Shown here piece by piece: positions 2,268 to 50,619 of a stretch of DNA of 64,000 nt; positions within the stretch are counted from its first letter, which is position 1, and the number at the start of each line of letters is the position of its first letter. A program made the position numbers and the translations under genes. The DNA is from Candidatus Colwellbacteria bacterium CG10_big_fil_rev_8_21_14_0_10_42_22 (GTDB lineage Bacteria > Patescibacteriota > Minisyncoccia > UBA6257 > Colwellbacteraceae). The notes below the pieces were generated by a model. That model did not search any database and was not told where the DNA came from. It was given only the letters and a program-made list of their open reading frames with translations. The stretch covers positions 59,590 through 123,589 of the forward strand of contig PFAH01000002.1 in assembly GCA_002773725.1 (NCBI GenBank). The letters run 5' to 3'.

Positions 2268-2371
2268 GATATCTTGGCAACAAAATCTTTTAATCCAGTA
2301 ACTCTGGATAATCGAGACTTGAAGACTCCTCGATCAACATCTCCCCGATTTAGGTCGGGGACCTATTCTCA

Positions 2372-3850
<1,479 letters not shown>

Positions 3851-12886: not shown

Positions 12887-13878
12887 ATTTTACAGGGCTT
12901 ATATGATTTTGGAGCTCGAGCTAAATATGACTCAAGCTGATGTTTAATTAGAAGTCCTGCCCTAGCGCCGGTTTTCTGCACTACTGCCATTGAATTAATG
13001 GGGGCTCGTAGGAGCGCTTCTTCGATAGTGCCATTGCCAGCTAAAATAGCAGTGAAAGTGCTTGAGAATGCATCTCCTGCCCCGGTTCTTTCAAATGGAG
13101 GTTTGGAATCAGGATAAATAGGCATGAACCAATAATTGCCACCCTCTTTTACGTAGGCGCCCTCTTTACCATCCGTAATCACAACTATTTTAGGACCGAG
13201 TTTAGCTAAATTGTTTAAAAGTTTCTTAATATTCCCTTCTTTGGTATTGAGAATTCTTTGCGCCTCTTCTTTGTTAGAAAAGAAAAGTTCTGTGTGACGA
13301 TATATGCCCCTTAACTTCTCCTTGCCTAATTGCATCTGGAAAGTGCCTGGCTGAAAAGCAAGTTTAACTTTTGGGTGTTTTTCTAAATATTTTTGAACCT
13401 CCTTATGAAAAGAAAGCGTATTTTCCCCAACAGAAGAAAAGTAAATCCATTTGGGCTCGCCGATGAAAGGTAAAGAGTATTTGTATGTTTCGTGTTTAAT
13501 AAGGATTGTTCTCTCTCCCTTGAAGGATAAAACGTAGTGGTAGTTGCTCTTCTTGCCTTTGTGTACCTTTATAAAATCTTTGGCTACTTTCTCTTTTTTA
13601 AACACAGCTAGGGCCTCTTCTCCGTTTCTATCGTCGCCGATATTTGATACAAAGGCACTCTTGAGGCCTAAACGGGCGGCACAAACGGCAGCGTTTGCGG
13701 CGTTGCCAACTGCTGGCACTACTTCTACGCTTTCGTAAGGTATCTTATCTGCAAAACGCATACAAATTAGTTTGTTACCGTGGTCAATACTGTGGACCTT
13801 CGCCTCTTGAAGCTTGATGAAGGCATCTGTGGTCTGATCGCCGATGGCGATGAAATCATATTTTGTCTTATTTGCCAT
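12883..13878 (-). CDS. PfkB/ribokinase-family carbohydrate kinase
   Basis: GNAANAA...ARLG, ITDGKEG, RTGAGDAF. Confidence 0.92.
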   Translation of the reverse strand: MANKTKYDFIAIGDQTTDAFIKLQEAKVHSIDHGNKLICMRFADKIPYESVEVVPAVGNAANAAVCAARLGLKSAFVSNIGDDRNGEEALAVFKKEKVAKDFIKVHKGKKSNYHYVLSFKGERTILIKHETYKYSLPFIGEPKWIYFSSVGENTLSFHKEVQKYLEKHPKVKLAFQPGTFQMQLGKEKLRGIYRHTELFFSNKEEAQRILNTKEGNIKKLLNNLAKLGPKIVVITDGKEGAYVKEGGNYWFMPIYPDSKPPFERTGAGDAFSSTFTAILAGNGTIEEALLRAPINSMAVVQKTGARAGLLIKHQLESYLARAPKSYKPCKI

Positions 13879-19354: not shown

Positions 19355-19384
19355 AAAAAAAAGCCGTTCCATATGGATACGGCT
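19355..19384 (-). terminator. Terminator of cassette 3
   Basis: AGCCGT.TCCA-TA-TGGAACGGCT followed by a T-run. Confidence 0.75.
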
Positions 19385-19457
19385 CCTGGGAATTGATTTA
19401 AAGACTCAATTCCTACAAATTCCGGCTTTCGGAATCTGCCCCATAGGTCTTTGGAAG

Positions 19458-19583
19458 CTATTGCCTCTCATTCAACTTCTCCTTCTCTTTCTCAGGATCT
19501 GACGCTCCCTGAAGAGCGCAGAACAGAAGGAGAAGCGCGATTCCGACAAGGAACGCGACCACTCCAAAGATGACCCATCCCAT
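19458..19583 (-). CDS. 41-aa single-TM small protein, not in the ORF track
   Basis: GGGAGGAGG then ATG; MGWVIFGVVAFLVGIALLLLFCALQGASDPEKEKEKLNERQ. Confidence 0.7.
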   Translation of the reverse strand: MGWVIFGVVAFLVGIALLLLFCALQGASDPEKEKEKLNERQ

Positions 19584-19653
19584 TTCCCCTCCTCCCAAGG
19601 GTTTTAAGGAGGGGCGACCAGCGCGGTCGCCCCTCCGGGATTATGCGAATTAC

Positions 19654-19851
19654 TTACTCGTCCGGACTTCCCAACACAAGGGTGATGTAGTAAATCCCTG
19701 CCCCCACAAGGGCAAAAATCAACGAATCGACCCAAACGTTGGCTGTCGGATTCAACTCCTGCCAACCATCCACGCTCTTAACGAGCCAAACGATGAACAG
19801 GTAGAAGGCCCCGAAGAAGAAGACCCGACGGATAAGAGAATACCGTTGCAC
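19654..19851 (-). CDS. 65-aa two-TM small protein (cassette 3)
   Basis: AGAGGA 6 nt before GTG; two hydrophobic helices. Confidence 0.68.
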   Translation of the reverse strand: MQRYSLIRRVFFFGAFYLFIVWLVKSVDGWQELNPTANVWVDSLIFALVGAGIYYITLVLGSPDE

Positions 19852-19958
19852 GATACATCCTCTCTGTAATCCGCCCGCTTTTTCACCCCGGTGGTAATGT
19901 GCGTATCATAAGAATTCCAGCGCGGAACCCTGTGCCTAGACCTTCTAGACACACGTTT

Positions 19959-19987
19959 ACACTACCATATTTGATATCCTTTGTCAA
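19959..19987 (-). promoter_or_regulatory. sigma70-type promoter of cassette 3
   Basis: TTGACA-17-TAGTGT with extended TG. Confidence 0.65.
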
Positions 19988-21897: not shown

Positions 21898-21921
21898 TAT
21901 ATATGAGATTAATTTATACGG

Positions 21922-22029
21922 TCCGCGCGGGAGGAATCGAACCTCCAACCTTCTCCTTAAGAGGGAGCTGCTCTGCCGATTGTCCGCCAAAGGCGGATCC
22001 GCCTTTGGCGGAAGCTATTCAACGCACGC
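21922..22029 (-). pseudogene. tRNA-Lys(CTT) copy interrupted by a 30-bp palindrome in the D-stem plus 5 extra nt after the acceptor strand
   Basis: Intact T-arm and anticodon arm (CTCTTAA); GCT^C split by the insert; GCGTGCG pairs 6 of 7 with CGCGCGG. Confidence 0.75.
21983..22012. repeat. Perfect 30-bp palindrome TCCGCCAAAGGCGGATCCGCCTTTGGCGGA
   Basis: Equals its own reverse complement; each half is also a hairpin. Confidence 0.95.
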
Positions 22030-22031
22030 TG

Positions 22032-22104
22032 TCCGTCTCCTGGGAATCGAACCCAGAACCTTCGGCTTAAGAGGCCGCTGCTCTGCCAGTTGAGCTAGAG
22101 ACGG
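22032..22104 (-). tRNA. tRNA-Lys(CTT), CCA not encoded
   Basis: Cloverleaf CCGTCTC...GAGACGG-A; anticodon loop CTCTTAA. Confidence 0.9.
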
Positions 22105-22105
22105 A

Positions 22106-22180
22106 TGGTGTCCCCGGAGGGATTCGAACCCCCAACGGCTGGTTCGAAGCCAGCAATGATATCCATTTCACCACGGGGAC
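22106..22180 (-). tRNA. tRNA-Arg(TCG), CCA encoded
   Basis: GTCCCCG...CGGGGAC-ACCA; anticodon loop CTTCGAA. Confidence 0.93.
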
Positions 22181-22266
22181 AAACGATGTTCCCGCAAGCA
22201 ATCGCGCCACGGGGACTTTGGCTTCGCGCATTCACGATAGCAAAATCCCATACTACTAATCAATAC

Positions 22267-22296
22267 AAAACACCCCGACTTGGGTCGGGGCGTTTT
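22267..22296 (-). terminator. Intrinsic terminator of the candidate ncRNA
   Basis: CGCCCCGAC-CCAA-GTCGGGGTG-TTTT. Confidence 0.8.
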
Positions 22297-22622
22297 GGTT
22301 TCCACTCGGTGCCTTCTCTCATGAGTCTGCGAAGGGGGGTTCGCGGACTCATGAGAGAAGCGGAGAGAGGACGAACGAGATTATCATTCGTTCCCTCTCC
22401 GTTGAAGTTTGTGGGGTGGTGGATGGACGTTAATCCACTGCGCTTTGACGCCAAGCAGGCGTGGGAGAACTTGTTCCCACAGGGACCATAACTAGCGTGT
22501 GGTCGTAACCACACGGCGCTCTAGCCGTCCTCTATCCACCACCCCGGCTAATTAATCCGAATATTCAGATGAATTAGTCGAAGTAGTGGAGCCACTCCAT
22601 CGTTTCAAATTTTCAGGGTACA
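22267..22622 (-). ncRNA. Candidate ~350-nt multi-stem non-coding RNA of unknown class
   Basis: Perfect promoter upstream, terminator at the end, at least 7 stems, no credible ORF. Confidence 0.65.
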
Positions 22623-22627
22623 CGTGC

Positions 22628-22656
22628 ATTATAACACAAGATATCCATTTTGTCAA
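22628..22656 (-). promoter_or_regulatory. Consensus sigma70 promoter
   Basis: TTGACA-17-TATAAT with extended TG. Confidence 0.88.
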
Positions 22657-27354: not shown

Positions 27355-27383
27355 GAGGAGCCCGACTTGGAGTTGGGCTCCTC
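27355..27383. terminator. Hairpin between convergent recG and cassette 4
   Basis: GAGGAGCCCGACT-TGG-AGTTGGGCTCCTC. Confidence 0.65.
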
Positions 27384-49576: not shown

Positions 49577-50619
49577 TATTTTAAACCGAGTTCCTCAAAT
49601 ATCTTTTCGAGTCGTGCTTGATATGTGTGCTCTTTTAATGCGCGCTCATATCCTGCTTTTGCAATTGCCCTTCTCTCTTCTTCGTGCTCTAAATAATATT
49701 TAATCTTCTTGATTAGATCTTTCGTGTCTTTATAAATGACTATTTCTTTGTCTGGCTCAAAATAACTTTCCATATCGTCGGCATCGCCCGTAATACAAAA
49801 TCCACCCGAACCGGTGATTTCAAACGGTCGTGCTTTAATTTGCGGAATTTTTTTCTGGAAATAGGAACGTATGTTCGGATAGATATGCAAAAAATCTGGT
49901 ACGATCAAATTTCTACGTCTTCTGAAAAAGATTTGAGCGAATGGCTTAAGGGCTAGTGCAGACATAGGTGGGTTTAAGTTCAGATTAATCTTGCTACGAG
50001 AAAATATATCAAGCATCTCAGTAAAACTTGCCCTTCCTTCAGACCATTTATAGCCACGCACAAATACATTAATATCTGCCTTCCGCAATTTATCAATTAT
50101 TTTTTTTCTATGAGACGTTTGCATGCCTACGAAAGAAACTCCTATGTTATGATTTGGAACAACAACTGACTTATAAAGTCCCGGATTAAAACCCCATTGA
50201 GAGCGAATCACGTTCGTAATGCCATATTTTGCGTAACGTTTTTTTGCCTTAGACCAAGTGGTAATTACTTTTGTAAAATGTGGTGCCCAGAATCTAGAAT
50301 AATTATCCAATCGCCAATGGTCATCAGAGAACCAAGCGACACTTGTGGTTAGTTTCTTAATTTCGTCGAGCGTTTCGGGTTCTAATTCATCCGTATACAT
50401 AAAAGCCCAAAAAAGGTCGGGTTTTTCACTCCTTACCGTATCTAAAAGCTCTTGATTATAAGCTCGCTTACCTACTTTAAGTGCCCTATCAAATGGAATA
50501 TATATAACTTCGTTCTTCGGATTACTTTTTAATAATAAATAAAAGTTGTTGTGCTCATTGGTTTTGCCAAGTTCGGGACGATAACGCTCATTCTCTAGTC
50601 CCGTAAATAGAATTTTCAT
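49576..50619 (-). CDS. Glycosyltransferase, CgeB/Glyco_trans_1_2 type (paralogue of 46778)
   Basis: DDHWR, VSFVG, SKINLN, KARPFE, ERRAIAKAG. Confidence 0.85.
   Translation of the reverse strand: MKILFTGLENERYRPELGKTNEHNNFYLLLKSNPKNEVIYIPFDRALKVGKRAYNQELLDTVRSEKPDLFWAFMYTDELEPETLDEIKKLTTSVAWFSDDHWRLDNYSRFWAPHFTKVITTWSKAKKRYAKYGITNVIRSQWGFNPGLYKSVVVPNHNIGVSFVGMQTSHRKKIIDKLRKADINVFVRGYKWSEGRASFTEMLDIFSRSKINLNLNPPMSALALKPFAQIFFRRRRNLIVPDFLHIYPNIRSYFQKKIPQIKARPFEITGSGGFCITGDADDMESYFEPDKEIVIYKDTKDLIKKIKYYLEHEEERRAIAKAGYERALKEHTYQARLEKIFEELGLK

Follow-up and report, generated by a model that had tools for sequence, protein, structure and literature searches.

The 64,000-nt stretch of DNA analysed here, hereafter the window, comes from Candidatus Colwellbacteria bacterium CG10_big_fil_rev_8_21_14_0_10_42_22, whose genome (G000; 551 kb, 98% complete) carries on the minus strand of the window a compact unit lying between two orphan ORFs, beyond which is the divergent recG gene, and the genes for tRNA-Arg, tRNA-Lys and the CCA-adding enzyme, the last with relatives in Colwellbacteria, Harrisonbacteria and other Patescibacteria. 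No RNA run turned up among the sequencing runs that contain the stretch, and contigs from DNA runs confirm its sequence. The unit is headed by a putative sigma-70-type promoter (22628-22656, minus strand), TTGACA-17-TATAAT with an extended TG, which matches the consensus at 12 of 12 positions and has similarly placed promoter-like counterparts in two homologous loci, L064 and L068. The initial annotation had singled it out as the best promoter in the window, and it is indeed the sole 12/12 site among the 24 sites found between 14000 and 31000 and the only one of the three perfect sites in the genome that falls inside the window. Its likeness to the promoter of a cassette at 19987 is also real; that cassette (19380-19987, minus strand) has, under the sister promoter, two ORFs for small hydrophobic products of 65 and about 41 aa, Shine-Dalgarno (SD)-like words and folded flanks. 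Judging from the promoter position, transcription would be expected to start near 22621, leaving an unpaired 5' leader (22600-22621, minus strand) with the word GUACCCUGAAAA, which we take to resemble boxA; L068 has a similar 5' word. NusB is encoded in G000, and no Rho was found in this 98% complete genome.

At its other end, the unit closes with an intrinsic terminator (22262-22297, minus strand; pairing probability 0.99). The terminator had been likened to the hairpin of another cassette, and a 10-mer is in fact common to it and the hairpin at 27370, but the terminator is a dispersed palindrome, since the same palindrome recurs after the 16S gene and on contig C4, making three places. A separate promoter-like site, TTGATT-18-TATCGT (22234-22263, minus strand), whose -10 word is kept in 4/4 homologues, precedes the genes for tRNA-Arg(TCG) and tRNA-Lys(CTT) (22031-22180, minus strand), identified by tRNA detection and fixed as downstream neighbours at the homologous loci. 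A 9-nt complement links the loop region of the unit's RNA with the T-arm of this tRNA-Arg and is mostly tied up in stems. Two further observations concern the tRNA region: upstream of tRNA-Arg (window 22171-22216; L041, L064, L068), 4/4 homologues have duplicates of its 5' end, with varying inserts between them, and a second tRNA-Lys(CTT)-like copy (21921-22020, minus strand), missed by ARAGORN, has its D arm split by a 30-base perfect palindrome at 21983-22012.

The minus strand of the unit (363 nt) has a predicted folding energy of -173.4 kcal/mol (z -12.2), equalled by 0 of 100 shuffles; z is -12.2 for the 3' 200 nt and -5.2 for the 5' 200 nt. In the window copy the opposite strand folds equally well (-173.3 kcal/mol; z -14.9 against -10.9), and the sense strand folds better in 3/3 homologues. 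Strong folding alone is not exceptional in G000; in a survey of 309 intergenic windows of 200 nt, 303 of which were scored on the best strand with 8 shuffles each, 19 of the 303 reached z below -8. The main stems proposed in the initial annotation are borne out by mean pairing probabilities of 0.75-0.99, and the terminator is present. On the minus strand, the predicted fold runs from a hairpin in the variable 5' part (22545-22580; 0.75), which is not conserved, through a long helix around three small hairpins in the variable 5' domain (22413-22545; 0.83), to hairpin A (22361-22401; 0.93) and hairpin B (22313-22360; 0.94). The latter is a 21-bp stem with a loop of six cytosines (C6; 22334-22339) closed by an A-U pair and unpaired in the predicted fold with probability 1.0; it is followed by a 14-nt linker, GCACCGAGUGGAAA (22299-22312, minus strand), that is invariant in the homologue alignment. 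Two other elements fared poorly, namely a closing helix of 22585-22590 with 22301-22306 (pairing probability 0.21) and an alternative pairing of ATCCAC at 22433-22438 (negligible, 0.02).

No Rfam family matched the unit at the gathering threshold, and at E up to 10 just tRNAs and chance hairpin matches appeared. The absence of hallmarks of the four housekeeping RNAs reported earlier stands: the unit has no RF00023 match, tRNA-like ends or tag frame, while the tmRNA of G000 lies on contig C7 (131 bits); it has no RF00010 match, and a full-length match to RNase P RNA is on contig C3 (64.4 bits, E 5e-20, below cut-off); RF00169 and RF01854 (SRP RNA) have no match anywhere in G000, in which, at 98% completeness, no SRP54-domain protein was found either; and the multi-hairpin fold, with no RF00013 match, is not the single rod with a central bubble of 6S RNA. 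We note separately a probable short 6S RNA on contig C8 (about 13745-13870, plus strand; L040), with an RF00013 score of 28.7 bits (below cut-off), a closing stem and its own promoter and terminator. The window RNA has no hammerhead core, and no self-cleaving ribozyme family appeared in it in Rfam at E up to 10; resemblances to pistol, twister, T-box and tracrRNA were unsupported by eye and had no Rfam match at E up to 10. An 84-aa ORF (22260-22514, minus strand) is judged spurious from homologue and Pfam searches, in which it had neither a homologue nor a Pfam match. It is broken in 3/3 homologues, by an in-frame stop in G367 and by a frameshift after the hairpin plus upstream stops in L064 and L068. 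Pairing rather than this ORF is what is conserved, in keeping with the non-coding nature first proposed.

Homologues were recovered from genome G367 (L041, its 5' end cut by the contig), genome G401 (L064/L073, counted once) and a metagenome contig (L068), along with a 59-base match in run X9; L067, a repeat of the window sequence, was left out of counts. The three long homologues sit upstream of tRNA-Arg, with L064 and L068 directly opposite recG. Common to the homologues are hairpin B with its C6 loop, the linker, a terminator and the tRNA promoter. Hairpin A is shared in shape: its structure and closing CGGAG/CUCCG-type ends are kept in four homologues while its inner sequence is free; it is absent directly upstream in the X9 copy. 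The 5' 220 nt, by contrast with this 3' module, showed no similarity in any of the 6 pairings of four homologues (p 0.10-0.86), and the full homologue units all fold strongly (z about -7). The view of the whole ~350 nt as one conserved class was thus too broad, the 5' part being unrelated folded sequence. As judged from these comparisons, the conserved part is the 3' module: the 21-bp C6 hairpin, the linker and the terminator.

In 4 orthologues, 97% of the stem cells of hairpin B are paired, and 3 of 17 pairs (5 cells) changed on both sides; this covariation is suggestive only, because shuffles reach the observed pair count in 95 of 500 cases and the cell count in 4 of 500. When two rows of the second type of unit described below are added, the C6 loop and its closing A-U are invariant in 6/6 aligned copies and 15 of 19 stem pairs have changed on both sides, a result that is partly circular because the second type was picked for having the C6-hairpin shape. 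Across both types the stem cells include 7 G-U against 4 unpaired. An unpaired tip that stays the same, carried by a stem whose sequence is free to change, is what one expects of a binding site.

Among the genomes searched, the module turned up in a single genus. BLAST of the unit against 401 order genomes returned one real match (G367), with short matches, mostly to the terminator or promoter, in 23 other genomes. Model R1 matched 4 of 53 family genomes, three of this genus and one a weak match without a C loop; the match in G391, with a similar stem but no C-rich loop, was not counted. Model R2 had matches in 3 of the 53 family genomes and, among 150 order genomes, in G000 alone; the joint pattern occurred in 2 of 401 order genomes. 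Phage and plasmid collections gave no match. Among viral contigs, the two joint patterns had 0 matches, 120 linker-only loci included none with the hairpin (by filter), and 21 loci with the helix pattern included none like the domain (by eye); one of 8 loop-pattern loci had a C6 hairpin (L377/L385). This last locus, on a phage-like contig (L385 5980-6040, plus strand), is a 17-bp C6-loop hairpin with no linker.

G000 has 18 hairpins with C-rich loops, and stems of at least 20 bp occur in just two of them, both with an exact C6 loop closed by A-U. The second belongs to a unit on contig C4 (33130-33430, minus strand; L313; z -6.5) that comprises a promoter, an unrelated 24-bp C6-loop stem, a linker and a terminator. 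Its linker, GCA-CCC-loop-GGG-AAA, is a looser form of the one in the window; by chance, about 2 in 10,000 hairpins would have a loose linker match beside them, for a motif that was defined after both had been seen. In this unit the C6 hairpin follows the promoter immediately, close to the 5' end, and ORFs of at least 60 aa are absent. No Rfam match exceeded the cut-off. G367 has a copy that is 81% identical with the loop intact, and no copy was found in G401. Elsewhere in G000, on contig C6 (about 49680-49740, plus strand), a hairpin with a C-rich 12-nt loop lies between a promoter and a tRNA-like gene. We consider it probable that the stretch in the window encodes a non-coding RNA whose C6 module is under selection.

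The reading that we prefer, tentatively and by analogy, with somewhat less than even confidence, is that of a small RNA that acts by base pairing, in the manner of 6C or RsaE, and whose transcription, stability, action in trans and targets we infer. The stretch would be a non-coding RNA gene in its own right, about 360 nt long and transcribed separately, whose C6 loop would pair with G-rich single-stranded stretches of other RNAs and whose 5' part would be exchangeable folded cargo. The likeliest targets would be messages of GC-rich accessory genes, carrying SD-like G runs that core genes lack, and pairing with the loop would lower their translation or target them to RNase III, in the way of C-rich-loop RNAs of Gram-positive bacteria; RNase III is encoded in G000. 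We prefer base pairing because the closest worked cases pair C-rich loops with mRNAs. The 6C RNA of Actinobacteria is reported to do so (PMC6486639), and RsaE and the small RNAs with a UCCC motif in Staphylococcus aureus are reported to block initiation by pairing with mRNAs (PMC2790875).

The comparison with these RNAs also has limits. The window RNA has the 6C-type feature of a hairpin loop of six cytosines; 6C is an actinobacterial RNA of about 93 nt that has multiple C-rich loops (PMC6486639), whereas here a single C6 loop sits on a stem of 21-24 bp in a unit of 290-380 nt and is followed by a fixed linker, and the Rfam 6C model gave no match at E up to 10. RsaE likewise has a conserved unpaired C-rich motif and is reported to be stable and independently transcribed (PMC2790875), but the motif is A-CCCCCC-U here and UCCC there, with no sequence match; moreover, RsaE hosts use SD pairing, unlike the organism of the window, whose 16S rRNA lacks the anti-SD. 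A hairpin with a CCUCCU-type loop beside dprA does not occur in G000, and 30 dprA loci of the class gave one weak match. On the base-pairing reading, then, the RNA works like C-rich-loop small RNAs yet is a member of neither 6C nor RsaE.

The translational setting both motivates and weakens base pairing. The 16S 3' end has no CCUCC (the anti-SD) in G000 (window 2340-2400, minus strand), G367 or G062; a published survey puts the share of Parcubacteria with the anti-SD motif at only 48% and does not settle what this entails (PMC9297842). In a crude ORF set, an SD-like word stands ahead of 10 of the 24 ORFs whose GC exceeds 0.5, against 14 of the 440 others. Predicted loop pairing at gene starts is -4.7 kcal/mol for 53 GC-rich genes against -2.3 for 510 others, a preference that we attribute to composition because the interiors of such genes pair about as strongly (-4.5 kcal/mol, against -3.8 in others). 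The loop complement is avoided at core-gene starts and is not enriched at cassette-gene starts. For the linker, the genome offers no convincing antisense partner (6 further sites, allowing up to one mismatch). Also counting against base pairing, C6 fits AGGAGG worse than CCUCCU would, the homologues are few and related, and, where the ribosome lacks anti-SD pairing, blocking an SD may matter little.

The slot opposite recG provides the main case for another reading. The initial annotation had suspected that the RNA is part of a cassette programme, and the unit does fit the promoter-to-terminator layout of cassettes in this lineage. G406 and G307 have a promoter at the same point opposite recG, and downstream of it come a small ORF, which is optional, a type III hammerhead that scores 34-36 bits against RF00008 (below cut-off), a long hairpin, the word GGAAA and a terminator. 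These hammerhead cassettes of two sister genera thus share with the window unit the recG slot and a succession of promoter, variable cargo, long hairpin, GGAAA and terminator, and differ from it in that the window RNA has no hammerhead core and that their long hairpin has an AU-rich loop. At the sister-genus loci L074 (951-997) and L076 (1290-1344), the hammerhead is followed by a long hairpin with a common UGUACACUU in its loop, GGAAA and the terminator. RF00008 matches occur in 6 of 53 family genomes. G000 itself has three type III hammerhead-like motifs, below cut-off (C10 9749-9803, C4 52576-52615 and C2 29088-29127; L257, L264, L265), each of which follows GC-rich small ORFs.

That sister genera fill the slot with hammerhead-ended cassettes favours a role in cis, in which the module would be a 3'-end element, either a stabiliser or an RNase III processing site, of a swappable promoter-cargo-terminator cassette whose window cargo happens to have no protein gene. 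It is in line with this that the 5' cargo differs even in G367, although its RecG is 94% identical over 443 aa, that an SD-like word accompanied by an ORF of 4 codons persists in L064 and L068, and that the three hammerhead-like motifs of G000 end GC-rich cassettes. A stabiliser, however, needs no invariant loop or linker, and in the C4 unit the hairpin lies behind the promoter with no ORF of at least 60 aa; we regard a cis element as the chief competing reading, if on the unlikely side.

The cargo itself may be traded among cassettes. The 12-mer that closes the long helix of the window unit recurs in G062 (L262/L272) at equal distance from the promoter and with a matching partner strand, and the comparison of G062 with the window 5' domain (p 0.013, the best of 10 comparisons) gives a hint that 5' domains might be drawn from a shared pool. 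In G062, contig C2 (L262 1470-2050, minus strand), we observed an ORF-poor, RNA-like unit of about 570 nt (z -11.6), with a large multi-stem domain, that ends in a hammerhead and terminator; it had no Rfam match over the cut-off.

Alternatively, the RNA could be a decoy or scaffold whose C6 tip and linker bind a protein that recognizes C-rich RNA, the stems just presenting them. Invariant single-stranded letters on a stem of constant length and free sequence would suit such a role, as would the consensus promoter and the lack of any antisense partner found; no candidate protein is encoded nearby, however, and with Rho not found either we consider a decoy unlikely.

Less probable again is that the hairpin acts as DNA, as a repeat or as an insertion or recombination site for cassettes, with transcription incidental. 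Cargo is replaced just upstream of the module, the terminator is the dispersed palindrome, and an order-wide repeat with the same 12-mer around its loop adjoins serine-recombinase-like genes in 3 genomes. Against this, the module is single-copy per genome at a fixed locus, both units have their own promoter and terminator, the G-U pairs favour one strand, and the order-wide repeat has a 19-nt loop and no linker, so that we rate a DNA element as very improbable. The repeat in question is a GC-rich hairpin (L232-L235, L244, L246, L248, L251-L254) with two C6 runs in the 19-nt loop; it forms inverted pairs 1.7-2.4 kb apart in three genomes, and several copies lie beside serine-recombinase-like genes.

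It is also conceivable, at long odds, that the C-rich tip replaces the lost 16S anti-SD and helps the ribosome to start on SD-led imported genes. The invariance of the tip and the coexistence of an anti-SD-less 16S with GC-rich accessory genes that carry SD-like words speak for it, but no ribosome-binding feature was identified, G062 and other family members lack the anti-SD or gave no module when searched, and no precedent was found in the literature searched. Finally, a message for the 84-aa ORF or a mini-peptide is largely refuted. There is an open frame at 22514-22260, and each of the three full-length copies has short ORFs accompanied by SD-like words, but these mini-ORFs vary from copy to copy and the longer frame is the spurious one dealt with above.

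A bolder reading, to which we give only a slim chance, would be that C-rich-tipped free RNAs took over SD reading in a lineage without an anti-SD and act as a genome-wide switch that silences imported SD-led cassettes or delivers them to the ribosome. We found no published description of the window RNA in the literature searched, which covered main texts only, so that the motif may figure in a supplementary table; small RNAs of Patescibacteria are essentially undescribed in that literature. The window RNA offers a compact module, with a free stem, a fixed loop and linker and two units per genome, in an organism with no anti-SD but with SD-led accessory genes. Should the loop prove to recognize SD-like runs, it would reveal how such cells distinguish imported messages from their own.
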